In this document: positions 11,178 to 41,126 of the stretch, in pieces
Layout: each line of letters opens with the position of its first letter
Numbering within the stretch: the stretch's first letter is position 1
DNA from: Solirubrobacterales bacterium
GTDB taxonomy: Bacteria > Actinomycetota > Thermoleophilia > Solirubrobacterales > Solirubrobacteraceae
Direction of reading: 5' to 3'
Assembly: GCA_025964355.1 (NCBI GenBank)
Contig: JAOPZB010000090.1
Coordinates: forward strand, 1,419 to 65,418
Length of the DNA: 64,000 nucleotides
Notes under the pieces: model-generated
The model's database searches: none
What the model saw: the letters and a program-made list of their open reading frames with translations, nothing else
What the model was told of the DNA's origin: nothing
Made by a program: the position numbers and the translations under genes

Positions 11178-12065
11178 CTAGGCCGTGAGGTGGGCGCTGT
11201 CGCCGCCCGTGGCGGCGAACGAGGTCCCGCTCACCATGCGGGCCTCGTCGGAGGCGAGAAAGACGACGAGCGGAGCGACGTCCTCGGGCTCGATCCACGG
11301 GACACCCAGCGGAGTCTTGGCCTTGAGCACCTCGATCGCGATTCGCTCGTCCTCCGCAGGATTGCCGGTCGGCTGGCGGCCCGCTTCGCTGATGGCCTGT
11401 GCATAGCGGTCCTCGTGTCGCGTTAGCGGGGTGTCGATCAGGCCGGGGACCACGGCGTTGACCGTGATGTTGTGGGGTCCGAGCTCGAGGGCCGCGGACT
11501 TCATCAGGCCGATGAGTCCCCACTTCGACGCCGAGTACGCCGAACCGAACTTCGTGCCGCGCTGGCCCTGGGTGGACGAAGTCACGATGATCCGACCGCC
11601 GCCCCGCCTGACGAGCATCGGCGCGAAGACGCGCAACACGTTGGCGGTGCCGTTCAGGTTCACATCGATGTGGTCGTGCCAGTCGGCATCCTCCATCTCT
11701 AGGAGCGGCTTGAACGCTTGGATGCCGGCGTTGGCGAACAGGATGTCGATGCCGCCCCAGTCGCGCTCGATCGTCTCCGCGACCGAGCGAATCTGCTCGA
11801 TTTGCCGCTGATCCGCAGTCAGGGCCTTCCAGCGCGACCCGGTGGCCTCGACCTGTCTCCCGGTCGTCGCCAGATCGTCAGCGGTCGCCGGCGCGAAATC
11901 GAGGATCGGGCTGGCCTCGGCCGCGATGTCGATGCCCGCCACGTCGGCTCCGTGCTGCGCCAGCGCGACGGCCGCGGCTCGCCCGATCCCGCGGGCGGCT
12001 CCGGTCACGACGGCGACACGGCCATCCAATCTCCCCGGAGCCTGACCGCTCGTCCGCTCGCTCAT
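11178..12065 (-). CDS. SDR family oxidoreductase with a mycofactocin-coupled-SDR-like insert
   Basis: TGAARGIG, ANAGI, YSASK; insert DIAAEASPILDFAPATADDL. Confidence 0.88.
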   Translation of the reverse strand: MSERTSGQAPGRLDGRVAVVTGAARGIGRAAAVALAQHGADVAGIDIAAEASPILDFAPATADDLATTGRQVEATGSRWKALTADQRQIEQIRSVAETIERDWGGIDILFANAGIQAFKPLLEMEDADWHDHIDVNLNGTANVLRVFAPMLVRRGGGRIIVTSSTQGQRGTKFGSAYSASKWGLIGLMKSAALELGPHNITVNAVVPGLIDTPLTRHEDRYAQAISEAGRQPTGNPAEDERIAIEVLKAKTPLGVPWIEPEDVAPLVVFLASDEARMVSGTSFAATGGDSAHLTA

Positions 12066-12150
12066 GTCATCTGACCGACACAATACGCCGCGCGCTCTGG
12101 AGCGCAACGTGATCGCGGCATGCGAGCTGCACGGAGCACCGCCGCGTGAC

Positions 12151-13623
12151 TCACAGCTCAGACTCCTGCCCCGGGGCCGTGCCGATAGGAGGTCCGGACT
12201 CGATCGAGCCGGGACCCTCCGGGCTGTCGGCGAGCACCTCGAAGCCGCCGTCTGGACGGCGTGCGATCAGCGCCCCTTCCCAGGCACGCAGCGGGTGTGA
12301 GCCGGTGCGCGCAAGCCAACGGCAGGTCTGGCGGGTAGCGAAGAAGACGATTATGGGCAGCAGCCACACGCCGACACGCCAGAAATGGACCTGTTCTTCG
12401 TAGGGAATGTGCAGCCTCACGAAGATCCGGTCGGTCGAGCCGACCGCAAAGATGATCACTACCCAGCTGAGGAACGCCGCGCCGATCGCTGTTCGCACCG
12501 GCCGGTCGCGCGGGCGGTCGAGCAGGTCGTGCCTGCGGTAGTCGCCGGTGACCCGCCGCTCGAGCGCCGGCCACGCGAACATCATCGCGAACACGACTGT
12601 CGGAAAGAGGACGCCGCCCCAGAACGGGTTCGGTATCAGCGTGTGTCCGGCGATCGTCGGCTCCCAGTTCGGCATCAGACGCAGCGCTCCGATCAGCCAT
12701 CCGATGTACCAGTCGGGTTGCGCGCCGTTCTCGGACAGGTAACCGTGATACGGCCCCCACTGCCAGATCGGGTTGACCTGGATCAGGCCGCCGACCAAGA
12801 ACAGCACGGCCGCGACAGCCAGCAGCAGCCCGATCGACCGCAGTGCGTAGGCCGGCCACAGCGGTGTTCCGACGACGTTTCGCTCGCGACGTCCCGGACC
12901 GGGGAACTGCGTGTGGCGGTGGCGCATGATCATCGCCAGATGCATCGTGATCAGGACCGCGAGCGCGAGTGGGATCACGAGCACGTGGATGATCTCTAGG
13001 CGGGGGAAGAAGTCCGACGAGCCCGGGAACTGGCCGCCCCAGATGAGATAGCCCAGCTGTGCCCCCACGAACGGGATCGAGAGGGCGACCGAGTACGCGA
13101 TGGCGAGCCCCATACCGGAGAGCAGGTCGTCGACCAGCGAGTAGCCCGCGAAGCCCTCGAGGATCGCGAGCATCAGCATGGTCAGGCCGATGAAGTAGTT
13201 GAGATCGCGCGGCTTGCGGTAGGCGCCGGTGAAGAAGATCCGAATCAGGTGCAGCACGATCGCCGCGACGAAGACATCGGCCGCCCAGTGGTGGATCTGG
13301 CGCACGAGCAGCCCGGCCGGGACGTTGAAGCTGAGGTCGAGCACCGAGCGGAAGGCCTCCGACATCTGTTCCCCACGCAGCAGGTCATACGGCCCGCGGT
13401 AGATCACCTGCGTGTCGCTCGGCACGTAGTAGAGCGTCAGGAAGACGCCGGTTGCGACGAGCACGATGAAGGCGTAGAGCGCAATCTCCCCGAGCAGGAA
13501 CGTCCAGTGGTCGGGAAAGACGTAGCGAAGCGCCCATTTGATCGCCCTTGCCGCGCCGAGGCGTTCTTCGCCCAAGCGCATCGTGCGCGCCAGGCGACGT
13601 GGGGGGCGGCGCGCGACGATCAT
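12151..13623 (-). CDS. qcrB: Cytochrome bcc complex cytochrome b subunit
   Basis: FPDHWTFLLGEIALY, heme ligands IHHW/LHL/IHV/MHL, Qo motif PDWY. Confidence 0.95.
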   Translation of the reverse strand: MIVARRPPRRLARTMRLGEERLGAARAIKWALRYVFPDHWTFLLGEIALYAFIVLVATGVFLTLYYVPSDTQVIYRGPYDLLRGEQMSEAFRSVLDLSFNVPAGLLVRQIHHWAADVFVAAIVLHLIRIFFTGAYRKPRDLNYFIGLTMLMLAILEGFAGYSLVDDLLSGMGLAIAYSVALSIPFVGAQLGYLIWGGQFPGSSDFFPRLEIIHVLVIPLALAVLITMHLAMIMRHRHTQFPGPGRRERNVVGTPLWPAYALRSIGLLLAVAAVLFLVGGLIQVNPIWQWGPYHGYLSENGAQPDWYIGWLIGALRLMPNWEPTIAGHTLIPNPFWGGVLFPTVVFAMMFAWPALERRVTGDYRRHDLLDRPRDRPVRTAIGAAFLSWVVIIFAVGSTDRIFVRLHIPYEEQVHFWRVGVWLLPIIVFFATRQTCRWLARTGSHPLRAWEGALIARRPDGGFEVLADSPEGPGSIESGPPIGTAPGQESEL

Positions 13624-13681
13624 CGCCGGCGTGCCTTGCGCTGCAAACGCCCGGGAAGCAGTGCTGTGCCTCGCGCGTTTC

Positions 13682-14803
13682 TCATGACTGCCCGCGATGC
13701 ACGCTCCACCACGACGGCCCGATGTCCTCGTGGAACGCGGCCGCCGCCCGCAGGTTGCGTTCGCCGTCGATCATCAGCGGCAGCTGCGGCAGCGCTCGGC
13801 CAGCGGGCCCGAACATCAGCCGACCGCCTTCGCCCGGAGAGAACGTCGAGTAATGGCAGGGACAGGTGAACGCGGGACCGACGCTCGTCGGTTGGTATGT
13901 GGGGTACCGGTACAGCGAGATCGCGCAGCCCGCATGCGGGCAGATCTTCGAGTAGGCGAGGATGCCCTCCGGCGCCCAGTCGCGACGGGCGGGCGGCAGG
14001 TGGATCAGGTCGGCGGGCAGCTTCACGACCAGCACTCCAGAGCCGAAGGCCTCCGGGTCGCCGCGCTCGGGCAGCGCCGTGTAGAAGGCGCCGATTTGCA
14101 CGTCCTCGGCGCTGTAGGGCCTGCCCTGGTCGTCGACGAGTCGCACGCCGCGCCGCCAGGCCGTCTGGTGGATGGCGTCGAGGTCGGGGCCGAGCGAGGC
14201 GAGCGGCGTGACCGCCGCAGTCAGCACCCCCGCGCCGGCCAGGCCGGCTGCGCCAGCCAGCAGCGTGCGCCGCGAGATCCCCTCGCCGCCGGACTCGACG
14301 ATCTCGAGCACCTGCTCCATCTCCTGCTCTTTCAGGAGCACATCGCGCTGCTCGACGCTCGTCTCCTGCGGGACGACCGCCTTGCCGGCGACGATCGCGG
14401 CGGCGGCGAGCAGTGCCAGCCCTCCTCCGAGGGCGATCCCGAGCAGCTGCGTGCTTGCCCCGGCCGCCGCGTAGACGACCGTGAAGCCAAATGCGAACAG
14501 CCCCGCGCCCACCAGCAGGATCGCGACGATCGCCTCGGCCCGTCGGTTGGCGGGAAGCTCTCGCTGCGACGGGTCCTCGCCGGAGCGCGAGCCGGGGGCG
14601 GAGCGGGGGGCGGAGCCCGAGTCGGGGCCGGAGCCCGAGCCGGAGCGGGAGCGGGGGACGGAGCCGGGGCCCGGGCTGGGCACGCGGCGCATCTGGCGCC
14701 GGCGCGCGAACGCATCGCGCAGCGCGCGCGCCGTCAGCAGCGCCGCGAGCATTGAGGCGAGGGCGCGCAGCCTCGTTGTGCCTCGGTCGTCCCCATCGCT
14801 CAT
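13682..14803 (-). CDS. qcrA: Cytochrome bcc complex Rieske Fe-S subunit
   Basis: CPHAGC and CPCHYS boxes, internal Tat motif SRRTLL after TM helices, GPAGRALPQL. Confidence 0.95.
   Translation of the reverse strand: MSDGDDRGTTRLRALASMLAALLTARALRDAFARRRQMRRVPSPGPGSVPRSRSGSGSGPDSGSAPRSAPGSRSGEDPSQRELPANRRAEAIVAILLVGAGLFAFGFTVVYAAAGASTQLLGIALGGGLALLAAAAIVAGKAVVPQETSVEQRDVLLKEQEMEQVLEIVESGGEGISRRTLLAGAAGLAGAGVLTAAVTPLASLGPDLDAIHQTAWRRGVRLVDDQGRPYSAEDVQIGAFYTALPERGDPEAFGSGVLVVKLPADLIHLPPARRDWAPEGILAYSKICPHAGCAISLYRYPTYQPTSVGPAFTCPCHYSTFSPGEGGRLMFGPAGRALPQLPLMIDGERNLRAAAAFHEDIGPSWWSVHRGQS
14582..14680. repeat. Degenerate hexamer repeats encoding a Gly/Ser/Pro/Arg linker in QcrA
   Basis: Arrays of GGAGCC/GGAGCG/CGAGCC encoding PSPGPGSVPRSRSGSGSGPDSGSAPRSAPGSRS. 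Confidence 0.6.
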
Positions 14804-14816
14804 GACCTGTCTCCGT

Positions 14817-15731
14817 TCAATTCGTCCTCTCGCCGATCAGCCGCGCGACGATGACCAGCGCGGTCAGCGCCAGAAACCAAGCGACCATGCCCTCGGGGAT
14901 CGGCCCGATGTTGGAGATGCCCCAGCCGCCTCTGTCGGACGGCGCACGCGTCCAGAGCACGTAGCGAGCGATCGAGTCCAGCGCGTGCTGGTCTATCTGC
15001 CGGGGGCCGAAGCGCGGCATCACGTACGGGCCCATGCGCACGGCCTCGGCCACCTGCTGCGCCGTGGCGCTCTGCAGTTCCGGCACGATCGCGCCGATCG
15101 TCAGGCCCCCGCGCCCGACGATCTGGTGGCAGCCGGCGCAATCCAGCGTGAAGTCGTGAAGCCCGAGCGCGAGGTCGCCGGCGCCGGGATCGGTGGTCGG
15201 CGCCGGCGGACCTCCGAACGAGCTCACGAACGCGACGAGCGCCTGGATCCGCGCACGGGAGTAGAGCGGCGTGGTGCGCAGCGGCTCGGCATGGGGGTTT
15301 TCGAGCGGCATTCGTCCGGTCGACAGGTAGAAGTCGACGGGCCCGGCCCCGACTCCGACAAGCGACGGAGCCATGCGTGTTCGACCCTTCAGGTCCATGC
15401 CGTGGCACGAGGAGCATCCCTCCTCGTAGAGGCTTCGCCCTTCTGCGAGCAACGTCGGCGAGCTCGGTGTCGCCACCGTGCGTTCACCGGGCGCGGGGGC
15501 CTCCGGGAACTTGCTGCGACCGGTTCCAGGCGGCTGCGGCGCTTGCGCCGGTGCAGCCGCGCCCCCGGAGCCGGTCGCGGCGGGCGGCGTCGCGGCGCCG
15601 CTGGCCTGCGGCGACCGCGGGCTCGCCAGGATCAGCAACGCGGCGGTGCCCATCAGCAGAGCCACGGTGGCGCGAAGCGCTCGCGGCGCTCGCGCCCGGC
15701 GCGTGAGCCAGCGACGCGCGAGCGCGCTCAT
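14817..15731 (-). CDS. qcrC: Cytochrome bcc complex diheme cytochrome c subunit
   Basis: CSSCH and CAGCH, STGRMP, GPYVMP, GPIPEG plus a C-terminal TM. ATGA overlap with ctaG gives start 15731. Confidence 0.92.
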   Translation of the reverse strand: MSALARRWLTRRARAPRALRATVALLMGTAALLILASPRSPQASGAATPPAATGSGGAAAPAQAPQPPGTGRSKFPEAPAPGERTVATPSSPTLLAEGRSLYEEGCSSCHGMDLKGRTRMAPSLVGVGAGPVDFYLSTGRMPLENPHAEPLRTTPLYSRARIQALVAFVSSFGGPPAPTTDPGAGDLALGLHDFTLDCAGCHQIVGRGGLTIGAIVPELQSATAQQVAEAVRMGPYVMPRFGPRQIDQHALDSIARYVLWTRAPSDRGGWGISNIGPIPEGMVAWFLALTALVIVARLIGERTN

Positions 15732-16612
15732 CGGGGACGCTCTCCGCTTGCCGTTCTGCGAGGGCCATGCGCGAGCAGGGCGTGGCGCTCGCGTGCGGCC
15801 TGACGACGCTCCTCGAGCATCATCGACGCCATCGCCAGCCGCAGACCGACCGCGATCATGAACGAGCTGCCGCTGACCCACATGATCGCTCCGGCCTGCT
15901 GCTGGTCGGTGACGGCCGAGATGCCGAGCGCTCTCGCGGGCGCGCCATAGCCGGGATACACGAGCGTGGGCGCGCGGTTGAGGTAGGCGCCGACGAGCGC
16001 CATCGCCGGCATCGCGGCCAGCAGATAGACGAACCGGCCCATACCGCCGAGGCGGTGCGAAGGCGCCGGATCGCCGTCCAGCAGCGGCCACCAGAACATC
16101 AGGCCGCTCGCGACGAACAGCGCATGCTCGCCGTCGTGCAGGAGCGGATGACGCAGCGTCGCTTCATAGAAGGCGGGCACGTGCGTCGCGATCAACGCGG
16201 CGCTGAACACGCCGAGACACACGAACGGGCTCATCAGCCGACGCGTCCCGGCGAGCAGTCGCATCAGAGCAGCGCGGCGCTCCGGTGCCAGCGCGCTCAG
16301 AGCGAGGATCACGGGGCGCCCTTCGAGCAGCAGCAGCGGCGCCACGAGGAGCAGGAGCATGTGCTGGACCATGTGCACCGAGAGGAGGCGGTCATCGAAC
16401 GTGTCGATTCCCGACTGCGACGCGAGCAGCACGACGCCTATGCCGCACATGAACGAGACAGTCCGCCGGACGGGCCAGCGGGCACGCGTGCGATGCGTGC
16501 CCCAAAGGTAGATGCACGCGTACGCCGCGCCCGCGCCATCCAAGCCCCACGCTGGCGACCAGTGTTCGACGAGCAGCGACGGCATGCCGGGAGCGGCGCC
16601 GACGATGCTCAC
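15728..16612 (-). CDS. ctaG: Caa3-type cytochrome c oxidase assembly factor
   Basis: LSVHMVQHMLL, WP, HDGEH, DQQQAGAIMW. GTGA overlap gives start 16612. Confidence 0.9.
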   Translation of the reverse strand: MSIVGAAPGMPSLLVEHWSPAWGLDGAGAAYACIYLWGTHRTRARWPVRRTVSFMCGIGVVLLASQSGIDTFDDRLLSVHMVQHMLLLLVAPLLLLEGRPVILALSALAPERRAALMRLLAGTRRLMSPFVCLGVFSAALIATHVPAFYEATLRHPLLHDGEHALFVASGLMFWWPLLDGDPAPSHRLGGMGRFVYLLAAMPAMALVGAYLNRAPTLVYPGYGAPARALGISAVTDQQQAGAIMWVSGSSFMIAVGLRLAMASMMLEERRQAARERHALLAHGPRRTASGERPR

Positions 16613-17043
16613 GGTCCTCGCTCCTGTTCGGCTGAATCCGGCAGCGAACGGCTCTCGTGGAGTTCGCGGCTCGCCCGCGCCGCCTGCACTTCCAGGGCCA
16701 GCCGCCCCAGCGAGAGGATCAGCAGGCCGCCGCCGAAGTAGACGAGGAAGTAAGCCCACGTCAGGCCGAAGAGGATCGACGCGACAGCTATCGCCGCCAG
16801 CACGGCAGCAAAGCTGAGATCGGGCGCCGCCTCGGCGCGACCCGGCGGCGGGGGCTCGGGAGGTCCGCGCCGTATCGCGCCGCGGTGCGTCGCCACGAGC
16901 CACGCGGCCGCCAGCACGATCACGAGCACCGCGAATCCGAACGCGCCAACCTGGATGGCGTCACCGGTCCACACCCAGTTGCCGGCCATCAACACGGCCA
17001 GCAGGCAGGCCCAGGCGAGCAGCGGGATGGCACCGCCTCTCAT
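16609..17043 (-). CDS. Small 4-TM protein, probable oxidase subunit IV (CtaF-like)
   Basis: 144 aa, two hydrophobic hairpins separated by a Pro-rich loop, coupled directly after ctaD as actinobacterial ctaF is. Confidence 0.6.
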   Translation of the reverse strand: MRGGAIPLLAWACLLAVLMAGNWVWTGDAIQVGAFGFAVLVIVLAAAWLVATHRGAIRRGPPEPPPPGRAEAAPDLSFAAVLAAIAVASILFGLTWAYFLVYFGGGLLILSLGRLALEVQAARASRELHESRSLPDSAEQERGP

Positions 17044-18728
17044 GGCGCGTCCTCCTGCGGCGTGGGACCGAGCCCTGCGCGGCCGGCGGGCACGCGCGTC
17101 ATCGCGGCGCCGTTGCGATCAGCGGCCCGCTGGCGCAGATCCAGCAGTGGCGCGTAGGAGGTGATCGGCGGAAGCGCCCGCTCGAAGTTGTGGCGCGGCG
17201 GCGGCGAGGACGTCGCCCACTCCAGCGTATGGCCGAGCCACGGATCCTCGCCGGCCGCGTCGCGGTGGCGCAACGACACGACCACGTTGACGAGGAAGGT
17301 CGCGACGGCCAGCGCGATCACGCCCGCGCCCGCCGTCTCGAGCAGATTCAGCGTCCCCCAGCCCGGGTGGCTCGGATAGTCGGCGATCCGGCGCGGCATG
17401 CCGTAATTGCCGAGGAAGAACATCGGCAGGAACGTCATGTTCGTGCCGATCAGCAACAGCACGAAGTGCAGCCGGCCGAGCCCTTCGCGCAGCCGCGCCC
17501 CGGTGACCTTTGGAAACCAGTGGTAGATGCCGGCGAAGAAGCCGAACACGCTGCCCGCGAACAGCGTGTAGTGGAAGTGCGCGACGATCATGTAGGAGTC
17601 CTCGGCGTGGTAGTCGAGCACCGGCGAGGCGATGAAGATGCCGCTAAGCCCGCCGATCAAGAACTGCAGGAAGAAGCCGAGGGCGAACAGCATCGAGGTC
17701 CGCAGCAGGATCGATCCGCCTATTAGGGTCGCGATCATGTCGAAGTACTCGACGCCGGCCGGCACGACCAGCGCCGTCGAGGTGAAGGCGAAGTACTGAT
17801 TGGTCACGCCGCCGGTCGTGAACATGTGATGCGACCACACGCTCATCGACAGCGCCGCGAACGCAAGCATCGACGCGACGAACGCCGCATAACCGAACCA
17901 GCGCTTGTGCGCGTTGACGGCGATCACCTCCGCCGCGGCTCCGAGGAAGGGGAAGAACATCACATAGACGACCGGGTGACCGAAGAACCAGAACAGGTCC
18001 TGGTAGTCGATCGCCCCGCTGTAGCCGATGAACACGTGCGCCCCGAGGCGTTCGGCATACAGCAGCGCCATCGCGAGGATCAGCACGGGGAAAGACCCGA
18101 CGACCATCAGAGCACTCACGAGCTGCGTCCAGGTGAATACCGGCATGCGCATCACCGACATGCCGGGGGCGCGGCGGCGCGCGATCGTCGCCAGCACGCA
18201 ACCGCCGATGATCGTAAGCCCGGCGGCCGCCAGGATCACCCCCACGGTCCACAGGTCCTGGCCCACGCCTGGCGTATTCGCACTGTTCGACAGCGGGACG
18301 TAGGCGAACCAGCCCGATCGTCCGGCGCCTTCCTGGGTCAGCCAGCCGAGCTGCATGATGATGCCGCCCGACAGCCAGATCCAGAACGCGGCGAGCACCA
18401 TGCGCGGCGCGGCGATCGAGGAGGCTCCGATCTGCAGTGGCACCAGATAGATCGCCAGCGCCATCGCCATCGGCGTCACGAACAGGAAGATCATCGTCGA
18501 CCCGTGCATCGTGAAAAGTTCGTTGTAGGTCGCGTCTGAGACGAACTGCATGTGCGGCTGCGCCAGCTGCGTGCGCATCAGCAGGGCCATGACGCCGCCG
18601 CCGAGAAAGAACACGAGCGAGGCGAGCCCCATGTTCAGGCCGATGCGCTTGTGGTCGGTGCTGGCGGCCGCGCCGAACACGCTCGAGGCCCGCGAGACCG
18701 TGGTGACGGCGGGTGCGGTGGCGCTCAC
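17040..18728 (-). CDS. ctaD: Heme-copper oxygen reductase subunit I with atypical proton channels
   Basis: TDHKRIG, FTMHG, WFFGHPVVY, WSHHM, AHFHY, GMPRR, LEWATSSPPPRHNF. Confidence 0.95.
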   Translation of the reverse strand: MSATAPAVTTVSRASSVFGAAASTDHKRIGLNMGLASLVFFLGGGVMALLMRTQLAQPHMQFVSDATYNELFTMHGSTMIFLFVTPMAMALAIYLVPLQIGASSIAAPRMVLAAFWIWLSGGIIMQLGWLTQEGAGRSGWFAYVPLSNSANTPGVGQDLWTVGVILAAAGLTIIGGCVLATIARRRAPGMSVMRMPVFTWTQLVSALMVVGSFPVLILAMALLYAERLGAHVFIGYSGAIDYQDLFWFFGHPVVYVMFFPFLGAAAEVIAVNAHKRWFGYAAFVASMLAFAALSMSVWSHHMFTTGGVTNQYFAFTSTALVVPAGVEYFDMIATLIGGSILLRTSMLFALGFFLQFLIGGLSGIFIASPVLDYHAEDSYMIVAHFHYTLFAGSVFGFFAGIYHWFPKVTGARLREGLGRLHFVLLLIGTNMTFLPMFFLGNYGMPRRIADYPSHPGWGTLNLLETAGAGVIALAVATFLVNVVVSLRHRDAAGEDPWLGHTLEWATSSPPPRHNFERALPPITSYAPLLDLRQRAADRNGAAMTRVPAGRAGLGPTPQEDAP

Positions 18729-19438
18729 GCCGCGCCTCCGCCGGCGGCCTGCTGAGACCGCGCCCAGGTCGTAAACTCAGCCGGGCTCAGAGCCCGCACG
18801 TCGAAGATCATGTCGCTGTGCAATAGGCCGCAGAACTCGGCGCACTGCCCCGCGAACACGCCGCGGCGGGAGAACGTCAGCGTCGAGTCCTGGACCGAGC
18901 CGGGGATCAGGTCGTGCTTGTAGCGAAGCTGCGGGATCCAGAAGGCGTGGATGACGTCCACCGACGTGAGCCTGAAGCGGATCGCCTCGCCGGTCGGCAC
19001 CACGAGGTCCTGGCGACCGACGGCGCCGCTGTAGAGGTCGATGCCGTAGGCGGGATAGTTGAAGTGCCACTCCCACTTCGAGCCGGTGACGTTCACGACG
19101 AGCCCGGGACGCTCGCGCGCGGCCACGGTGTCGACGCGATGCTCAGCCGTGAAGGTGATGTACAGCAGGAACGCGACTGTGGCCACGAGCAGCAACGCGT
19201 AACCGCCCTCGAGACGGTCGTGCTCGTACCAGCGCGCGGCTCTCTCCGGCGGGCGGCGGCGGTAGACCAGCACCGCGAGCAGCGTCGCGATCACTATCAG
19301 CGCGAAGACGCCGATCGCGATCGGCACGTAGATGTCGAACACGTGCTGGTACTCCGCCCGGGTGTCGACGAGGCCGGTCGGCGCCCCGAGCCCCACCGAC
19401 GCCGCGGCGCGCGAGGACAGCGATAGGGCCGCATCCAA
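18725..19438 (-). CDS. ctaC: Cytochrome c oxidase subunit II (CuA)
   Basis: KWEWHFNY, DVIHAFW, CAEFCGLLHSDM. TTG start is uncertain. Confidence 0.92.
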   Translation of the reverse strand: MDAALSLSSRAAASVGLGAPTGLVDTRAEYQHVFDIYVPIAIGVFALIVIATLLAVLVYRRRPPERAARWYEHDRLEGGYALLLVATVAFLLYITFTAEHRVDTVAARERPGLVVNVTGSKWEWHFNYPAYGIDLYSGAVGRQDLVVPTGEAIRFRLTSVDVIHAFWIPQLRYKHDLIPGSVQDSTLTFSRRGVFAGQCAEFCGLLHSDMIFDVRALSPAEFTTWARSQQAAGGGAA

Positions 19439-19450
19439 AGTGAAGTGCGT

Positions 19451-19476
19451 CTACCCGCAGGAGGCCCCACTCAATC
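19451..19476 (-). promoter_or_regulatory. SigB/SigF-type promoter of the cta-qcr operon
   Basis: GATT-N16-GGGTAG on the minus strand, 12 nt before the ctaC start. Confidence 0.55.
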
Positions 19477-19534
19477 GGTGGGAGCCGGTCGCGCCGTACG
19501 CACCGGCCGGCGATCCGCTCGCGCGCGGGAGGTC

Positions 19535-19560
19535 GTTTCTCATGGCACACGCAGGGGTAG
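19535..19560 (+). promoter_or_regulatory. SigB/SigF-type promoter of the fdh operon
   Basis: GTTT-N16-GGGTAG, 9 nt before GTG 19570. Confidence 0.7.
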
Positions 19561-19569
19561 AGTGAGCGC

Positions 19570-22500
19570 GTGGCTGGACCGATTTCGCCACTCCCGTTCC
19601 TGCGCCAGCTGAGGGGGGATCCCCTCGGGCTCGGACGCTCGGCCCGGTCGCGCCACTCGGAGGAGCTCGAGCCCCGCACGAAGACGGCCGACCGAGTCGT
19701 TCAGTCCGTCTGCCCGTACTGTGCCGTCGGCTGCGGTCAGCGCGTGTATGTCAAGGACGAGAAGGTCGTCCAGATCGAGGGCGATCCCGACAGCCCGATA
19801 TCCCGGGGGCGCCTCTGTCCCAAGGGATCGGCTTCGGAGAGCTACGTCAACAGCCCGATCCGCGAGTACAAGATCAAATACCGCCCGCCGCACGCCACCG
19901 GATGGGAGGAGCTCGAGCTCGACGCCGCGATGGACATGATCGCCGACCGCGTGATCAGGACGCGTGCGCAGACCTGGGAAGAGGAGACCGAGGACGGCAA
20001 GCCGCTTCGCCGAACCCTTGGATTCGCGGTGCTGGGCGGCGCGACGCTTGACAGCGAGGAGAACTATCTGATGAAGAAGTTCTTCTCCGCGGCCGGGGCC
20101 GTGTCGATCGAGAACCAGGCCCGCATATGACACTCCTCCACGGTCCCCGGTCTGGGGACCTCGTTCGGTCGCGGCGGCGCAACCACCTTCCAGCAGGACC
20201 TGCAGAACGCTGACTGCATCCTGATCATGGGCTCGAACATGGCCGAGCAGCACCCCGTCGGCTTTCAGTGGGTCGTCGAGGCGAAGGAGCGCGGCGCCTC
20301 CGTGATGCACGTGGACCCCCGCTTCACGCGCACCAGCGCGATGGCAGACCTCCACGTGCCGCTGCGCGCGGGAACCGACATAGCCTTCCTCGGAGGCGTC
20401 ATCAACTACATCCTCTCGGGCGGTCGCGAGTTCACCGAGTACGTGCGTCACTACACCAACGCGCGGGTGATCATCAAGGATGAGTTCCGCGACGTCGACG
20501 AGCTTGGCCTGTTCTCGGGCTGGATGCCCGAGGACGGCGTCTACGACGTCTCCAGCTGGGGCTACAAGGGCACGCAGGGCGAGCTGACCGCCGGCAAGAA
20601 GGAGCAGACGGGCGATGTCTCGGGGGATCAGGCGCACGGTGCCCATGGGATGAAGCTCGAGCACGGCGAACCGCCCGAGCAGGACTGGACGCTCGAGCAC
20701 CCCAACTGCGTCTTCCAGATCCTCAAGCGCCACTTCGCCCGCTACACGCCCGAGGTCGTCGAGCGCATCTGCGGCGTGCCGCGCGAGCAAATGCTGCATG
20801 TCGCCGAGACGCTCTGCCGCAACTCGGGTCGGGAGCGCACCGGGGCCGTCTGCTACGCCGTCGGCTGGACGCAGCACACGCACGGGGTCCAGAACATCCG
20901 CGCCGCCGCGATCATCCAGCTTCTGCTCGGCAACATCGGACGCCCCGGCGGCGGCATCCTGGCGCTGCGCGGGCACGCGAACATCCAGGGCTCCACGGAC
21001 ATTCCGACGCTCTACGACATCCTGCCCGGCTACATCCCGATGCCGCATCCGACGTCGGAGGACGACCTGGACAGGTTCGTCGAGCTCAACGGGCCCGACA
21101 CCGGCGTCTGGGGCTCGTTGAAGAGCTACACGGTCAGCATGCTGAAGGCATGGTGGGGCGAGGCGGCGACGCCCGCGAACAACTTCGCCTACTCCTACCT
21201 GCCGCGCATCGACGGCGACCATTCGCACTACCCGATGATGCTGCGCATGATCGACCGCGAAACCAAGGGGTTCATCGTGATCGGCCAGAACCCGGTCGTC
21301 GGCTCGGCCAACTCCTCGCTGCAGCGCAAGGCGCTCGCAAACCTGGACTGGCTCGTGGTCAGGGACACCAGCGAGATCGAGACGGCCGCCTTCTGGTACG
21401 ACTCGCCCGAGATCGAAACGGGGAAGACACGTCCCGAGGAGATCGGCACCGAGGTCTTCTTCATGCCGGCAGCCGCGTACACCGAGAAGGACGGCACGTT
21501 CACCAACACCCAGCGGCTGCTGCAGTGGCGGTTCAAGGCGGTCGAGCCGCCATGGGATTGCCGCTCGGACCTCTGGTTCACCCACCAGCTCGGCAAGCGC
21601 GTGCGCGAGAAGCTAGCGGGATCCGACGATCCGAAAGATCGCCCGATCCTCGACCTCACGTGGGACTACCCGACGCAGGGACCACAAAAGGAGCCGGACG
21701 CAGAGACGATCATGCAGGAGGTGAACGGCCGCCACGCCGACGGCAGGTTCATCTCCAAATACCAGGAACTGAAGGACGATGGCTCGACCACATGCGGGTC
21801 CTGGATACACGCAGGCATCTACGCCGACGGCGTCAACCAGGCGGCCCGCAAGCGGCCCGGCTCCGAGCAGAGCTGGATAGCGCCCGAATGGGGTTGGGCC
21901 TGGCCGGCCGACCGTCGCATCCTCTACAACCGCGCGTCCGCGGACCCCGCGGGCAAGCCGTGGTCGGAGCGCAAGCGCTACATCTGGTGGGACAGCGATA
22001 AACGGGCCTGGACGGGCGTGGGCGACAACCCGGACTTCGAGCCCGACAAGGACCCCGGCTATGAGCCACCCGAGGGCGCCAAGGGCATGGCGGCGATCAG
22101 CGGCAGCTCGCCGTTCATCGTCCACCCGGACGGCCTCGGCTGGCTGTTCTCGCCCAGCGGGCTGGTGGACGGGCCGCTGCCCACGCATTACGAGCCGCAC
22201 GAGTCGCCGATCGACAACCTGCTCTACCGCGAGCGCTCCAATCCGACGCGTCAGACCTTTGAGCGACCGGAGAACCCCTATAACCCTCCCGGCGTTGAGC
22301 CCGGCGGCGAGGTGTTCCCGTTCGTCTTCACGACCTATCGCCTGACCGAGCATCACACGGCGGGAGGCATGTCGCGCAGCGTCCCCTTCCTGAACGAGCT
22401 CCAGCCGGAGATGTTCTGCGAGGTGAGCCCTGAGCTGGCGGCCGAGCGCGGGCTCGAACACGGTGGCTGGGCGATGATCGCGACCACGCGCACGGTGATC

Positions 22501-22782
22501 GAGGCGCGCGTGCTCGTCACCGATCGTCTGCGACCGCTGCGCATCGGCTCCGACCCGCCGCGTACCGTGCACCAGGTCGGCCTTCCATACCACTGGGGCC
22601 GCAAGGGCCTGGTCACCGGCGACTCCGCCAACGAACTGCTGCCCCTGGTGCTGGACCGCAACGTCCACATCTCCGAGTACAAGGCTGCGACCTGCGACAT
22701 CCGACCCGGCCGCCGCCCGCGTGGGCCGGCGCTGAGAGAGCTCGTCGCGGAATACCGGCGTCGCGCGGGAGTTTCCTCGTGA
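19570..22782 (+). CDS. fdnG: Selenocysteine-containing formate dehydrogenase alpha subunit (FdnG/FdoG type), about 1070 aa
   Basis: ORFs 19570-20130 and 20227-22782 are in the same frame, joined through TGA 20128-20130 in NQARI-U-HSSTVPGLGTSFGRG. CPYCAVGC..C Fe-S motif, LRGHANIQG, TYRLTEHH. Confidence 0.95.
20128..20160 (+). promoter_or_regulatory. Sec UGA codon and bacterial SECIS hairpin
   Basis: UGA, 11-nt spacer, then GGTCCCC(20142-48)-GGTCT loop-GGGGACC(20154-60). Spacing and loop match the E. coli fdhF/fdnG SECIS type. Confidence 0.9.
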
Positions 22783-23675
22783 AGCTCGAGACGCACGCCT
22801 GGCCGGGCAGCTACGGGGCCGAGGCCAAGCCGCGTGTCGGCTTCTTCACCGACACGAGCATCTGCATCGGCTGCAAGGCCTGCGAGGTGGCATGCAAGGA
22901 GTGGAACCACGTCCCGGAGTCCAGCGAGGGCTTCACCGGGCATTCCTACGACAACACCGTCGCTCTGGATGCCGACACCTGGAGGCACGTCGCGTTCATC
23001 GAGCAGCGCAAGGAGGTCGGCGTGGACGGGGCCGCCTCGCTCGCTCAGAGCGCCTCGCTCGACCAGCTGATCGACGAGACAGGGCTCGGCACCTACCAGG
23101 AGGGCGACGGGCTGCGCTGGCTGATGGCCTCAGACGTCTGCAAGCACTGCACGCATGCCGCCTGCCTGGAGGTATGCCCGACCGGCGCCCTGTTCCGCAC
23201 CGAGTTCGGCACGGTCGTCGTGCAGGAGGACGTGTGCAACGGCTGCGGCTACTGCGTGCCGGCCTGCCCCTTCGGAGTGCTCGACCGGCGCGAGGAGGAC
23301 GGCCGGGTGTGGAAGTGCACGCTCTGCTACGACCGCCTCAAGGACGACAGGGAGCCCGCCTGCGCGCAGGCCTGTCCGACCCACTCGATCCAGTTCGGCG
23401 AGCTGTCGGAGCTGCGCGAGCGGGCGCAGGTCCGTGTCGAGACACTCCGGGACGCGGGCGCCGAGAAGGCGCAGCTGTATCTGCACGATTCAGACGACGG
23501 GATCGGGGGTGCAGGCGCGTTCTTCCTGCTGCTCGACGATCCCGAGGTCTACGGTCTGCCCCCGGATCCCGTCGACACCACGCACGACATAGGGACCTCC
23601 TGGAAGGCCGTCGGCGCGGCCACGGCGGGGCTGGGCCTGACGCTCGCGGCAGCCGTGTTCGGAGGCAGGCGCTGA
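22779..23675 (+). CDS. fdnH: Formate dehydrogenase iron-sulfur beta subunit
   Basis: CIGCKACEVAC, CKHC..ACLEVCP, CNGCGYCVPACP, KCTLC..PACAQACP; C-terminal TM. Confidence 0.92.
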   Translation: MKLETHAWPGSYGAEAKPRVGFFTDTSICIGCKACEVACKEWNHVPESSEGFTGHSYDNTVALDADTWRHVAFIEQRKEVGVDGAASLAQSASLDQLIDETGLGTYQEGDGLRWLMASDVCKHCTHAACLEVCPTGALFRTEFGTVVVQEDVCNGCGYCVPACPFGVLDRREEDGRVWKCTLCYDRLKDDREPACAQACPTHSIQFGELSELRERAQVRVETLRDAGAEKAQLYLHDSDDGIGGAGAFFLLLDDPEVYGLPPDPVDTTHDIGTSWKAVGAATAGLGLTLAAAVFGGRR

Positions 23676-24667
23676 TGACCGGCGGATCGGGCGGCCGCCC
23701 CGATGGCGGGCGACGTTCGGCCACACGCGAGGAGGGCGCTACGCGTCGCTCCTACTACGGCCAGCCGGTGATCAAGCAGCCGGTCTGGGCGCCGGAGATC
23801 CCCTGGTACTTCTTCATGGGCGGCCTTGGCGGGGCCTCCGGCGGGCTCGCCTATCTCGCGGGGCTGCGGGGATCGGAGCTTCTCGCCCGGCGCTCCTGGA
23901 CGATCGCACTCGCGGCGCTGACCATCAGCCCGGTGCTGTTGATCAAGGATCTCGGCAGACCTGAGCGCTTCTTGAACATGCTGCGCATGTTCAAGGTCAC
24001 CTCGCCGATGAGCGTCGGCTCCTGGGTGCTCGCCGCGAGCGGCACGACGACAGCACTCGCCGCCCTGAACTCGCTGACCGGTCGCCTCAGCCGGCTGTCT
24101 CGCGCCGGCAGGCCGGCCGCCGCCGCGCTCGGCCTCCCGCTAGCGACCTACACCGGCGCGCTGATCGCGCAGACGGCGGTTCCCGTCTGGCACGAGGCGC
24201 GCCGCGAGCTGCCTGCTCTGTTCGCCGCGGGTGCCGCCACGAGCGCCGGCGCCGCGGCCACGGTGGCCACTCCCGTCGCCGACGCGGCTCCCGCGAGGCG
24301 CCTCGCGCTGCTCGGGGCGGTCGCAGAGCTCGTGCTCGCGAGGGTGATGGAGCGCCGCCTCGGCGAGCTCGCGGAGCCCTATCACGGCGGCCCCAGCGGA
24401 GCCCTGTCCACGGCGGCGCGCGGCTCCACGGCGGCGGGCGCGCTCCTCGTCGCGACTCGGGCCCGGCGCAGCCGCGGGGCGGCGATCGTGGCGGGCTCGC
24501 TGCTGCTGACCGGCGCCGCCTGCGAGCGCTGGAGCGTCTTCAAGGCCGGCTTCGCATCCGCGAGCGACCCGAGGTACACGATCGACCCGCAACGGGGGCG
24601 TGTGACCAAGCGGCGCGCGAGCGGTGGAGCAGGCGTCGCGGCGGGCGAGGCCGCGACGGACGCGTGA
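23675..24667 (+). CDS. nrfD: NrfD/PsrC family membrane anchor (quinone-interacting)
   Basis: YYGQPVIKQPVW, YFFMGGL, DLGRPERF, SPMSVGSW. TGATG overlap gives start 23675. Confidence 0.88.
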   Translation: MTGGSGGRPDGGRRSATREEGATRRSYYGQPVIKQPVWAPEIPWYFFMGGLGGASGGLAYLAGLRGSELLARRSWTIALAALTISPVLLIKDLGRPERFLNMLRMFKVTSPMSVGSWVLAASGTTTALAALNSLTGRLSRLSRAGRPAAAALGLPLATYTGALIAQTAVPVWHEARRELPALFAAGAATSAGAAATVATPVADAAPARRLALLGAVAELVLARVMERRLGELAEPYHGGPSGALSTAARGSTAAGALLVATRARRSRGAAIVAGSLLLTGAACERWSVFKAGFASASDPRYTIDPQRGRVTKRRASGGAGVAAGEAATDA

Positions 24668-24671
24668 GGGC

Positions 24672-24980
24672 ATGCTGACCGACGTCGAGATCAGCCGCGC
24701 GCTGAACGCGCTCTCCACCACGTTGCGCGATCAGCGACTGCCCTCCTTCGACGCCGCTCGAGCAGAGGAGATCGTGCTCGGCGCCCTCGCCCAAGAGCCC
24801 AAGCTCGAGGTCAGCGCCACCGGCCCGATCAGCGGCGAGCTGCGCGAGCGCGGCGACGGTCGTCTGGTCGCGACGGTGGAGCTCCGCGGCGGACAGTGGG
24901 TCGTAGTGCGCAAGCTGCGCGCCGGTGAGTCCAGCTGGGCACTGCCCCAGCCGGCTCACAACCTTAAGCCGTCGGCCTGA
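24672..24980 (+). CDS. Hypothetical protein, last gene of the fdh operon
   Basis: MLTDVEISRALNAL...; ATG 4 nt after the nrfD stop, GAGGG upstream, GC3-biased codons. Confidence 0.6.
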   Translation: MLTDVEISRALNALSTTLRDQRLPSFDAARAEEIVLGALAQEPKLEVSATGPISGELRERGDGRLVATVELRGGQWVVVRKLRAGESSWALPQPAHNLKPSA

Positions 24981-25020
24981 GCGACGCGCTCGCGTCCACG
25001 CCGGCGCCAACCGCTGATGC

Positions 25021-25045
25021 GTTTAGTCGGCATAGGCGAGGGTAA
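25021..25045 (+). promoter_or_regulatory. SigB/SigF-type promoter of the carbamoyltransferase-heptose operon
   Basis: GTTT-N15-GGGTAA. Confidence 0.7.
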
Positions 25046-25168
25046 ATCTGGCGCGGAGACAAGTGTGGGCATCGGCACCTGTCTTCCCTTTTTTCAACGA
25101 GGCTGGACGGCAGGCCGGCGAGCGGCTGTGTCGGACCTTCGTGGGATTCACGTCACGGAGAGCTGCTC

Positions 25169-28422: not shown

Positions 28423-29498
28423 CCCGGCGCGTCCTCATCGCCAGGCAGGACAACCTCGGGGATGTGCTGCTCACCGGACCCGCGGTGCGCGCCGTCGCCG
28501 CCGCGGGCGCGCGCGTGACGATGCTCTGCGGACCACGCGGCTCCGCCGCGGCCGAGCTGTTGCCCGGCGTGTGCGAGGTGATGGTGTGGCGAGCCGACTG
28601 GATCGATCCCGACCCAGACCCCATCTGCCGCGCGCATCTCGATGACCTCCTCGACAGCATGGCCGCGGGCCGCTTCGACGAGGCACTGATCCTCACCTCC
28701 TTTCACCAGAGCCCGCTGCCGCTCGCCCTGCTCCTGCGCATCGCCGGCGTTCCGCGCATCGCGGCGATCAGCGAGGACTATCCGGGCTCCCTGCTCGATG
28801 TGCGCGCTCAGGTCGACGACGACCTGCACGAGGTCATGCGCGGCCTGTCACTGGCCGACGCCTGCGGCTACAGCCTGCCGGACGACGACGACGGCCGGCT
28901 CCGGATCGAACGCAAGAGCGGGCTGGATCCGCGGGCCGCAGCGATGACTCCCTATGTCGTGGTGCATCCGGGCGCGTCCGTGCCGGCCCGCGCCTGGGCT
29001 GCGCGCCGCCACGCCGAGCTCGTTCGGCTGCTGAGCGAGCGGGGACGCAACGTGCTCGTCACGGGCAGCGCCGAGGAGCGCGATCTCACGGCCGCGCTCT
29101 GCCGCGGGGCAGATCCCGCGCGCGTCTGTGATCTCGGTGGCGCGACGGACCTCGGCGAGCTGGCGGAGGTGATCGCGGCGGCGGAGGCGATCGTCGTCGC
29201 CAACACCGGTCCGGCGCATCTGGCCGCTGCAGTCGGCACATCCACAGTCTCGGTCTACGCGCCCACCGTCCCATCGGTGCGCTGGCATCCCTGGTGCGTA
29301 CCCTTCGAACTGCTCCATCGGGAGGTGCCGTGCGCCGGCTGCCGAGCGCGACAGTGTCCTGTTCAGGGTCATCCCTGCGTCGATGAGGTGACGGCGGAGA
29401 TGGCCGCCGGGGCGATCGCGCGACTCACGCACCGTCCTGCAGCGCCGCGACCGGTCCACGGCACGCAGCGGGACCCGGTGGAACCGGTGCCGGCATGA
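28419..29498 (+). CDS. GT9 (heptosyltransferase family) glycosyltransferase
   Basis: DNLGDVLL, VHPGAS..RAW, NTGPAHLAAA, C-terminal Cys cluster. Confidence 0.9.
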   Translation: MTRRVLIARQDNLGDVLLTGPAVRAVAAAGARVTMLCGPRGSAAAELLPGVCEVMVWRADWIDPDPDPICRAHLDDLLDSMAAGRFDEALILTSFHQSPLPLALLLRIAGVPRIAAISEDYPGSLLDVRAQVDDDLHEVMRGLSLADACGYSLPDDDDGRLRIERKSGLDPRAAAMTPYVVVHPGASVPARAWAARRHAELVRLLSERGRNVLVTGSAEERDLTAALCRGADPARVCDLGGATDLGELAEVIAAAEAIVVANTGPAHLAAAVGTSTVSVYAPTVPSVRWHPWCVPFELLHREVPCAGCRARQCPVQGHPCVDEVTAEMAAGAIARLTHRPAAPRPVHGTQRDPVEPVPA

Positions 29499-32268: not shown

Positions 32269-32299
32269 GCGGGCGTAACGCCATGCGCCGGGAGCGCCG

Positions 32300-34388: not shown

Positions 34389-34404
34389 GCGCTCGTTTGG
34401 CGCC

Positions 34405-36364: not shown

Positions 36365-36404
36365 CAGCGGAGCCCGTGCTGCCTTCGACGGTCACTTAGG
36401 ACCG

Positions 36405-36475
36405 CTACCCAGCCGACGCCGTCGCCAAGCACGGCGCCGGGGCCGGCGTCGGTTGAAGGCCGTACGCGCGGGTAG
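36405..36475. promoter_or_regulatory. Back-to-back SigB/SigF-type promoters (GT2 and F420 LLM)
   Basis: Minus strand GCTT-N16-GGGTAG (36405-36430); plus strand GTTG-N14-GGGTAG (36452-36475). Confidence 0.5.
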
Positions 36476-36488
36476 GGGTGGAACTCCG

Positions 36489-41102: not shown

Positions 41103-41110
41103 CGCCAGCC

Positions 41111-41126
41111 ACTGTAGTGCGAGACT
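41111..41126. promoter_or_regulatory. Back-to-back -10 hexamers for leaderless moeA and mobA
   Basis: The divergent ATGs are only 31 bp apart. TACAGT (minus, 41111-41116) and GAGACT (plus, 41121-41126) lie 7-8 nt from the start codons. Confidence 0.5.

Follow-up and report, generated by a model that had tools for sequence, protein, structure and literature searches.

The stretch analysed here (the window: 64,000 nucleotides, G+C content 69.6%, from contig C237 of a 2.78-Mb, 264-contig Solirubrobacterales assembly, G000, rated 84% complete) carries two divergent respiratory operons: a formate dehydrogenase (FDH) operon on the plus strand, with a putative selenocysteine (Sec) codon in its catalytic gene, and a cytochrome bcc/heme-copper oxidase operon on the minus strand. 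They are separated by a 131-bp spacer (19439-19569, between fdhA and ctaC). An earlier reading made from the letters alone (the sequence-only reading) had described a Sec-FDH/Fe-S/NrfD operon and a bcc/oxidase operon diverging across 131 bp, and this gene content was found as claimed. The divergent junction is bridged by contigs from two soil sequencing runs of different studies, which join ctaC, the spacer and fdhA: contig X1 (19324-19779) has 0 differences, and X4 (17968-19779), a strain variant from the other study's soil metagenome, has 21, including positions 19412, 19504 and 19635 and none within either of the promoter-like boxes described below. The junction is therefore no assembly artefact. 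No Rfam family and, with ARAGORN, no tRNA was found in the window.

The FDH operon comprises four genes. The first, fdhA (19570-22782, plus strand; GTG start), encodes the catalytic subunit of a molybdo/tungstopterin formate dehydrogenase, interrupted by an in-frame TGA at 20131-20133. Its product scores 1803 bits against the actinobacterial FDH profile NF041513 (cut-off 1400; profile positions 6-1067 of 1067) and 929.6 bits against TIGR01553 (cut-off 814.2), contains the Pfam domains Molybdopterin, Molybdop_Fe4S4 and Molydop_binding, aligns with 1kqf_A (FDH-N) and 1h0h_A (the D. gigas enzyme), and shows an FDH-N-type active site (U187-H188 and the N-terminal motif CPYCAVGC). The second, fdhB (22779-23675, plus strand), overlaps fdhA by 4 nt and encodes a four-cluster ferredoxin subunit (Fer4_11 and related Pfam domains; 182 bits against TIGR01582, under its cut-off of 334) with, by hydropathy, a single C-terminal transmembrane helix ending in GGRR. 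The third, nrfD (23675-24667, plus strand), overlaps fdhB by 1 nt and encodes an integral membrane subunit of the NrfD family (Pfam NrfD, 52.5 bits), conserved across 14 related loci (alignment A3); a hydropathy scan detected 4 helices in it compared to the 8 expected. The operon holds no gene for a cytochrome b subunit of the FdnI type, its third gene belonging to the NrfD family instead, and NrfD is the presumed menaquinone site, standing in for FdnI. The fourth gene, orf118 (24672-24980, plus strand), whose ATG at 24672 lies 4 nt past the nrfD stop, encodes a small conserved protein (102 aa) to which no family could be assigned: it had no match in Pfam (E up to 10), NCBIfam or the ESM Atlas. 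In relatives where the two units are co-directional, orf118 is divergent from fdhA, behind a GGGTA box of its own.

Decoding of the fdhA TGA as Sec is credible. A TGA stands at the Sec position in 17 of 18 related FDH loci, each followed by a hairpin; in the window, the candidate Sec insertion sequence (SECIS) hairpin (20145-20163, plus strand; GGUCCCC-GGUCU-GGGGACC) has a 7-bp stem that begins 14 nt past the first UGA base. The folding z-score of the whole 73-nt stretch around it is not significant. Among the TGA loci the stem is one pair shorter in some, the loop is reduced to 3 nt in L052 and L054, and in L040 the hairpin sequence is present, yet the minimum-energy fold pairs its bases otherwise. 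The sole Cys-type FdhA (TGC) of the 18, in L041, has lost the hairpin; it also has no GTTT/GGGTA box and lies 3.4 kb from ctaC. The genome encodes selA and selB, with the tRNA-Sec gene (selC) adjoining these two, and selD, so that an in-frame UGA, a hairpin and all four sel genes, the marks of a bacterial selenoprotein system, occur together.

The seven genes of the bcc/oxidase operon all lie on the minus strand, with 4-nt overlaps at four junctions (ctaC/ctaD, ctaD/orf144, orf144/ctaG, ctaG/qcrC): ctaC (18725-19438; TTG start), oxidase subunit II (Pfam COX2) with a CuA site and no cytochrome c domain; ctaD (17040-18728), heme-copper oxidase subunit I of A-family descent (COX1, 414 bits); orf144 (16609-17043), a conserved four-helix membrane protein at the position of a small oxidase subunit; ctaG (15728-16612), a copper assembly factor of the Caa3_CtaG type (PF09678, 206 bits); qcrC (14817-15731), a diheme cytochrome c (motifs CSSCH and CAGCH); qcrA (13682-14803), a Rieske subunit (PF19297 and PF00355) with a long low-complexity N-terminal region; and qcrB (12151-13623), an unsplit cytochrome b of the actinobacterial type. 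The CuA ligands of CtaC (H164, C199, C203, H207, M210) are invariant in 28 sequences (alignment A4). A diheme QcrC together with a CuA-bearing CtaC that has no cytochrome c domain of its own is the arrangement of the bcc:aa3 complexes, and the unit shares with the mycobacterial and corynebacterial bcc:aa3 supercomplex (CIII2CIV2) the unsplit QcrB and the Rieske QcrA bearing a QcrA_N domain as well. Unlike in that supercomplex, the genes here form one operon that includes ctaG, and most subunits fall below the actinobacterial bcc:aa3 cut-offs of NCBIfam: of the five, only QcrB (NF050120, 551 bits, cut-off 500) lies above, whereas CtaD (NF050116, 564.1 bits, cut-off 880), CtaC (NF050117, 139.4 bits, cut-off 250; also TIGR02866, 145.4 bits, cut-off 147.7), QcrA (NF050121, 184.5 bits, cut-off 275) and QcrC (NF050122, 188.9 bits, cut-off 200) lie below. 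No match to subunit III (COX3/CtaE) was found in the contig or the cluster, the sole weak match of the genome being on contig C5. The protein encoded by orf144 is conserved in a 16-sequence alignment (A1) and had no significant sequence match in the PDB; its AlphaFold2 model (mean pLDDT 75) retrieved with Foldseek, as the top three hits, the 139-143-residue chains of three actinobacterial bcc:aa3 supercomplexes, at E-values that are not significant (0.1-0.25), and it is possibly CtaF-like.

The proton pathways set CtaD apart. The sequence-only reading had called the oxidase atypical, and the closer comparison bears this out: D-channel residues are lost, a Glu replaces the K-channel Lys, and subunit III is missing. 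We compared 52 rows of the CtaD clade with 29 canonical-like rows, a split at 51% identity to the query that corresponds to the two main clades of the tree; in this tree, made with a quick method, the cluster-bearing sequences form a single clade of 52 rows (SH-aLRT 100). In R. sphaeroides numbering, position E286 is Val in 52/52 clade rows (V253 in the window CtaD) compared to Glu in 29/29 canonical-like rows, K362 is Glu in 52/52 (E327) compared to Lys in 29/29, and T359 is Ala in 52/52 (A324) compared to Thr in 29/29. The equivalents of N121, N139, S142 and N207 are kept in 0/52 clade rows (29, 29, 29 and 28 of the 29 canonical-like rows), and D132 in 1/52 (29/29). Neither a D-channel, in its usual or its YS form, nor the K-channel Lys expected of an A-family oxidase is therefore found in the clade. 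The A-family active site is complete, the six heme/CuB His and the cross-link Tyr being kept in 52/52 clade and 29/29 canonical-like rows, and at further clade-invariant positions polar residues have been gained (Y328, N310, Y373, T388).

In sequence, CtaD remains an A-family protein throughout: its best PDB matches (7rh5, 6adq, 8hcr; E about 1e-148) are of the mycobacterial/corynebacterial type, and each of the 37 PDB matches at E<=1e-60 is an oxidase of the A family, with no B-family chain among them. Among the 150 nearest 50%-cluster representatives in a collection of 1.84 billion proteins, GHPEVY occurs in 91, SHPAVY in 14, and the signature GHPVVY only in 7 fragmentary entries, the best full-length match being 45% identical; this clade of oxidases is therefore small and distinct. 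The housekeeping CtaD paralogues of the order, including the genome's own copy on contig C27, keep GHPEVY together with the Asp and Asn of the channel entrance, and one of them has SHPAVY. The third oxidase of the genome (C5:19332-21233, also L130:5332-7233) has a 633-aa CtaD that keeps GHPEVY and carries Arg at the D132 and Glu at the N139 position, so that it too departs from the usual D-channel entrance.

Two altered canonical proton pathways and an absent subunit III would also suit an enzyme that is no energy-conserving O2 reductase, serving instead as an O2 scavenger that guards the Sec/Mo enzyme, or reducing some other substrate such as NO; heme-copper lineages with lost channels do include NO reductases, according to the accessible text of PMC11214002. 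We hold this to be highly improbable. No variation occurs in the cross-link Tyr, the three CuB His or the CuA site, whereas the same text has O2 reduction requiring the Tyr and the NO-reducing families carrying changed active sites; moreover, the co-inherited, proton-translocating bcc complex conserves energy whatever the oxidase pumps. The module enzyme looks like an O2 reductase of A-family descent in which the loss of the D-channel parallels that of the B family. It shares with the B-family (ba3-type) oxidases the absence of a D-channel and of subunit III and the retention of the His-Tyr cofactor and CuA; unlike in these, the sequence is of the A family, and the Glu at K362 and the gained Tyr, Asn and Thr residues are its own. 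By analogy with B-family oxidases, proton uptake probably takes a single altered pathway, with a lower H+/e- ratio. For the inferred transition from A to B, the accessible text of PMC11214002 links D-channel loss to higher O2 affinity.

The bcc/oxidase unit is accessory to a complex III of the b6c type, a further difference from the mycobacterial and corynebacterial system. The genome has Bacillus-type genes for a Rieske protein, cytochrome b6 and subunit IV-cytochrome c on contig C232, and two further oxidase loci (on C27 and C5). The QcrB of the module is the only full-length QcrB in this assembly and in the near-complete genomes G176, G286, G227 and G092 (the last also has, on a second contig, a C-terminal piece of QcrB covering residues 222-490 at 87% identity), and in G005, a relative that lacks the module, b6 alone was found. 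Complex and oxidase thus travel together as an extra branch, and it is in this sense, with the only full-length QcrB inside the module, that the 'self-contained' chain of the sequence-only reading holds.

The spacer between fdhA and ctaC contains two opposed promoter-like boxes, as had been claimed, each facing its gene. The box of fdhA (19535-19560, plus strand) reads GTTT-N16-GGGTAG, with the GTG start 11 nt after GGGTA; that of ctaC (19451-19477, minus strand) reads GATT-N16-GGGTAGA, with the TTG start 12 nt after GGGTA. Promoters of the SigB/SigF type have GTTT at -35 and GGGTA at -10, separated by about 15-16 nt. On both strands of the whole assembly, the relaxed motif G-N-TT-N14-17-GGGTA matches 106 times, equivalent to about 0.005 expected per 131 bp (both strands); because matches are so few assembly-wide, two correctly oriented boxes in 131 bp are far above chance. 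Among strict matches, 15/46 (33%) fall between -30 and +150 of a same-strand open reading frame (ORF) start, intervals that make up 6.2% of positions, and 37 of the 106 relaxed matches are ORF-proximal, preceding 32 of about 1900 ORFs (GC3-based calls). No sigma-70-consensus site was found in 11900-25300 (mean of shuffles 0.7). No Shine-Dalgarno-like sequence was seen between the boxes and the start codons; since the boxes lie only 11-12 nt from these starts, leaderless or near-leaderless messages are suggested.

The boxes are conserved and position-specific in related loci. Conservation against L034, the closest relative (89% identity in CtaD), extends over the two boxes and both start regions, whereas the middle of the spacer and the stretches between -35 and -10 have diverged. 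The 70 nt next to each start were searched for the best fit to GTTT-N14-17-GGGTA, and agreement at 8 or more of 9 positions was required: fdhA regions reached this in 15/18 loci (9/9 positions in 8) and ctaC regions in 15/31, compared to 1/147 control regions (ctaD, qcrC, qcrB, ctaG and qcrA starts). A count by regular expression gave 6/14 for fdhA, 10/31 for ctaC and 0/130 for the controls. A box is missing from 16 ctaC regions: in seven of these loci ctaC is joined onto the fdh operon, and in nine no FDH precedes ctaC. The boxes thus show the GTTT and GGGTA blocks, 14-17 nt apart and upstream of genes more often than by chance, that mark promoters of the SigB/SigF type. A candidate reader is encoded at 59172-60002 (minus strand), a sigma factor of the SigB/F/G family (TIGR02980, 263.8 bits, cut-off 234.35) and the only one in the assembly above that cut-off; five more sigma genes score 84-136 bits. 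It is adjoined by a gene for an RsbW-like kinase with a long C-terminal extension (58236-59081, minus strand), and further partner-switching genes are spread over 37659-38072, 46971-49665 and 52931-53950 (two STAS anti-sigma antagonists, a PAS-PP2C phosphatase and a MEDS-HATPase_c_2 kinase). An ECF-like sigma factor with DUF6596 is encoded at 45369-46940.

It is nevertheless conceivable, if quite unlikely, that the boxes are not of the SigB/SigF type: they might serve another sigma factor (ECF or housekeeping), act as operators, or be conserved for another role, without any link to stress. The five lower-scoring sigma genes offer other readers, and across the genome the motif precedes genes of mixed kinds. 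The -10 region of fdhA also reads TAGAGT, which fits TANNNT, the housekeeping -10 pattern of actinobacteria. To set against this, the two blocks, their 14-17 nt spacing and the distance of about 10-13 nt from GGGTA to the start (in seven perfect-match fdhA promoters) are conserved though the sequence between the blocks varies; the motif is too rare, standing before so few of the ORFs, to be a general promoter; and an RsbW-like gene is among its targets. The setting, with a SigBFG sigma and STAS, RsbW-like and PP2C genes nearby, resembles the partner-switching regulons of SigB in Bacillus and of SigF/SigB in mycobacteria and streptomycetes; it differs from them in that the boxes head respiratory operons and lie so close to the starts that leaderless messages are implied. 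To our knowledge, neither a regulon of this type nor its signal has been studied in Thermoleophilia.

Boxes of the same kind head other genes. One, a perfect GTTT-N16-GGGTA match, stands 86 nt ahead of nicO (G000 C41:20650-34150; L134:1155-14642), the first gene of a co-directional cluster in which nicO-hypC-hypD...hypA is followed by genes for the small and large subunits of the [NiFe]-hydrogenase, DUF6084, a HycI-like protease and HypB. This hydrogenase cluster may share a regulon with the FDH and the oxidase, and the analogy with H2 scavenging that the sequence-only reading drew fits such a box; form I CO dehydrogenase (TIGR02416) had no match in the 84%-complete assembly. A second back-to-back pair, G-N-TT-N14-17-GGGTAG, occurs at 52030-52130 of the window, with a 6-phosphogluconate-dehydrogenase-like gene (51100-52059, minus strand) on one side and a HAD hydrolase gene (52228-52881, plus strand) on the other; a third is on contig C235, at about 4919 and 5034. 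Within 54240-54270, a box precedes a DJ-1/PfpI gene (54301-54879) by 33 nt, and others precede DUF892 and RsbW-like genes.

The pairing of the two units was followed in relatives with two samples: the 54 loci of the oxidase clade (5 from one sample and 49/80 from another), in which loci with truncated flanks were scored as misses for FDH adjacency, and 401 Solirubrobacterales genomes, in which FDH and oxidase coordinates were compared by hand. CtaD orthologues (E<=1e-150, about 56-88% identity) are sporadic, occurring in 5/40 sampled relatives (with a short fragment in a sixth) and in 35/401 genomes of the order, and those examined always lie within the same ctaCD-(orf144)-ctaG-qcrCAB cluster. 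An FDH stands beside this cluster in 18/54 loci, in four arrangements: co-directional, with fdhA-fdhB-nrfD directly upstream of ctaC (13/18); divergent (2/18: L034 tightly, L041 with a 3.4-kb gap); convergent behind qcrB (2/18); and co-directional behind qcrB (1/18). Four loci (L021, L027, L038, L042) have a 4-nt overlap between the stop of nrfD and the start of ctaC, so that there FDH and oxidase form one translationally coupled operon. The four arrangements are scattered over distant branches of the 52-row CtaD clade. The adjacency noted by the sequence-only reading therefore recurs, although the divergent layout itself does not go far: the tight back-to-back form is found only in the window and L034 (which appears to be the same contig as that of genome G092), loosely in L041, and the commonest layout is one co-directional operon.

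In the order-wide sample an FDH was found in 117/401 genomes (the unpublished genomes G081 and G283 were counted only in this tally) and was commoner in genomes with the oxidase (23/35, 66%) than in those without it (94/366, 26%). The 23 genomes with both units include seven in which these are directly adjacent (G000, G092, G259, G254, G038, G362, G167), two with 6-7 kb between them (G286, G252) and one with 20 kb (G359). Chance adjacency within 10 kb in a 3.5-Mb genome amounts to about 0.6% per genome, or about 0.1 expected over the 23; the linkage of the FDH and oxidase/bcc units is not due to chance. L034 contains a second, more distant FDH operon (L034:16845-19014; 57-61% identical), convergent behind qcrB, so that its module is flanked by FDH on both sides. 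An origin of the window layout by inversion of the fdhABC cassette with both promoters, the orf118 promoter now driving ctaC, was considered and set aside: the gene order fits, and the boxes are too short and diverged to decide.

Taken together, we consider it probable that the window encodes an accessory aerobic respiratory module of two co-regulated units, running from formate through menaquinol and the bcc complex to O2, with preferential coupling of its parts and control of the SigB/SigF type. Formate would be oxidised at the Sec-Mo/W site of FdhA, and the Fe-S clusters of FdhA and FdhB would carry the electrons to menaquinone at NrfD, the whole being a membrane-bound FDH of the actinobacterial type. 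Menaquinol would then be oxidised by the module's own bcc complex, with diheme QcrC reducing CuA and O2 being reduced at heme a3-CuB. At the least, the Q-cycle and the charge separation that accompanies O2 reduction would conserve energy; a contribution from pumping by the oxidase is uncertain. Coupling of FDH and oxidase would run through the quinone pool, preferentially and not exclusively; a physical FDH-oxidase complex is possible. The boxes are most likely promoters of leaderless mRNAs, read by a group-3 (SigB/SigF-type) sigma such as that at 59172-60002 with its partner-switching regulators, and both units, probably with the hydrogenase cluster, would be switched on jointly by starvation or stress. 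What was observed directly is the gene content, the residue patterns, the synteny, the conservation of the motif and the sigma gene itself; the route of the electrons, their coupling through quinone, the sigma factor assigned to the boxes, the condition that induces the module and its proton stoichiometry are inferred.

Several observations weigh against this reading. Regarding the pairing, the FDH is more widespread than the module (117 compared to 35 of 401 genomes), occurring without this oxidase in 94 genomes, and the oxidase has no FDH match in 12/35; in 13 of the 23 genomes with both units these are on other contigs or far apart (two, with the oxidase match at a contig end, are indeterminate); the oxidase sub-clade that includes the same-genus genomes G006, G008 and G017 has an adjacent FDH in 0/14 rows; and both synteny samples were drawn from one species-representative collection, in which related genomes are not independent. 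Regarding regulation, the label 'SigB/SigF-type' presupposes a consensus that we take from Bacillus SigB and from mycobacterial and streptomycete SigF/SigB, the ctaC box reads GATT instead of GTTT, the candidate sigma gene has no such box in its own upstream region, and the 20 sequencing runs listed as holding the locus include none on record as RNA. An oxidase with neither canonical proton path could, in addition, function otherwise than proposed.

The orientation of the FDH belongs among these points. A comparison of N-termini recognised no export signal on FdhA or FdhB; the N-terminal 37 residues of FdhA, in place of a signal peptide, are not hydrophobic. The FdhA of relatives keeps a Tat-like (R)RLIPPF(L/V)RQL with no hydrophobic core behind it (best 12-residue Kyte-Doolittle mean below 1.5), and the RR of this motif is absent from FdhA in the window and L034. 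The lack of a recognisable signal, of a core and of the RR suggests a cytoplasmic enzyme carrying a vestigial motif. The FdhB helix points the other way, ending in GGRR as though its C-terminus were cytoplasmic, and for the FDH of R. equi export has been argued (accessible text of PMC13332983).

An alternative is that the two units share a regulon or an island only: the bcc/oxidase would be a general stress-phase branch, the FDH one co-regulated neighbour whose electrons go to any active oxidase, and adjacency a product of co-regulation or co-transfer. The genomes that have only one of the units favour such an arrangement, as does the stress-type company kept by FDH-less loci (GH15 trehalase-like, Usp, HAD, F420-LLM, TPP enzymes, RsbW-like kinase); the same box stands before DJ-1/PfpI, HAD and DUF892 genes and the hydrogenase cluster, and coupling through a quinone pool cannot be exclusive. 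It is, however, the FDH alone among electron-input enzymes that recurs beside the module, and it stays adjacent through all four arrangements; the nrfD/ctaC overlap in four loci exceeds what co-residence on an island requires. No alternative donor enzyme was found upstream of ctaC in FDH-less loci, where the neighbours are transporters and stress-type genes. We therefore regard the shared-regulon account as rather doubtful. A functional link between the two units is supported by the recurrence of adjacency, operon fusions included; the coupling is not exclusive. Since the FDH is commoner than the module, a third of the module genomes have no FDH match and only the window and its closest relative show the tight divergent layout, we view the pairing as a coupling via the quinone pool that recurs and is under selection, yet is facultative.

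The flanks of FDH-less loci (L018, L024, L028, L029, L031, L036, L046, L051) recurrently hold GH15 trehalase-like genes, a 217-aa HAD hydrolase and F420-type luciferase-like oxidoreductases (F420-LLM), as well as TPP enzymes, Usp, a Crp-like regulator and the RsbW-like kinase. The window holds homologous kinds of genes (HAD, 52228-52881; F420-LLM, 35712-37505).

Molybdenum cofactor (Moco) and maturation genes lie 13-19 kb beyond nrfD (38126-43827), where Moco, MobA and FdhD genes had been placed downstream by the sequence-only reading: moaC/moaB (38126-39352), moaD/moaE (about 39160-39900) and moeA (about 39858-41100) on the minus strand, and a gene for a MobA-like NTP transferase (about 41150-41736), moaA (42027-43034) and fdhD (42979-43827) on the plus strand. 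Between the fdh operon and these genes lies a glycan cluster (25169-36364) with a carbamoyltransferase, several GT2 and GT4 glycosyltransferases and a heptosyltransferase-like gene; it holds a full ADP-heptose pathway (a GmhA-GT4 fusion, a GmhB-like HAD-GT2 fusion and HldE), which is unusual for an actinobacterium. Elsewhere, at 4574-7888, an ORF of 1104 aa has two tandem amidase-signature domains (two matched stretches on several amidase models).

Among the known systems near to this one are the E. coli enzymes FDH-N and FDH-O (FdnGHI, FdoGHI), with which the window FDH shares a bis-PGD catalytic subunit containing Sec, a beta subunit with four clusters and a single C-terminal helix, the oxidation of formate, a quinone acceptor and O2 as the final sink. 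Unlike in E. coli, whose membrane subunit is the cytochrome b FdnI, the membrane subunit is hemeless and of the NrfD type, FdhA has no recognisable Tat signal, the quinone would be menaquinone, and the acceptor branch is a bcc complex with a cytochrome c oxidase instead of quinol oxidases, the oxidase genes being physically linked to fdh. For E. coli, formate dehydrogenase has been proposed to associate with terminal oxidases in a formate:oxygen oxidoreductase supercomplex (Sousa et al. 2013, as cited in PMC4082705). The same three-gene architecture, FDH-alpha/FDH-beta/NrfD, has been described in R. equi 103S, with products of 1080, 315 and 330 aa compared to 1070, 298 and 330 aa in the window and the same ambiguity over a short, polar, Tat-like N-terminus; the accessible part of that account mentions no bcc/oxidase linkage, Sec decoding or GGGTA-type promoter, and the window adds orf118 (PMC13332983). 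All the parts are thus of known kinds, the FDH trio having already been discussed for R. equi in that text. Within a literature coverage that leaves out most subscription journals and supplements, no description was found of an fdh-cta-qcr operon or of such an FDH recurrently fused with its own bcc/oxidase unit behind GGGTA-type boxes, nor of an A-family clade without the D-channel and with Glu for the K-channel Lys.

A bolder possibility, which we put forward tentatively and think unlikely to hold in full, is that the clade is an unrecognised offshoot of the A family, its single proton path rebuilt around the Glu at K362, inherited only with its own bcc complex as a portable supercomplex and, in many Solirubrobacterales, hard-wired genetically and perhaps physically (NrfD-CtaC) to an FDH. 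This would make it a dedicated formate:O2 respirasome, switched on together with a high-affinity hydrogenase by a SigB/SigF-type sigma factor for survival on trace substrates.

Surveys of desert-soil communities place formate dehydrogenase among their most abundant markers of energy metabolism (accessible text of bioRxiv 10.1101/2020.08.06.239558), and the route by which formate electrons reach O2 in aerobic Actinomycetota has received little attention so far. The locus provides a genetically testable hypothesis, an FDH with its own bcc complex and its own oxidase branch under a stress-type promoter, and should be of good interest to bioenergetics and to the physiology of soil microbes. The oxidase is a natural experiment: an A-family enzyme with a full O2-reducing site and neither the D-channel Glu nor the K-channel Lys, both of which are held essential in the family. 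Its H+/e- ratio and O2 affinity would bear on the evolution of proton pathways and on the gating of the pump.

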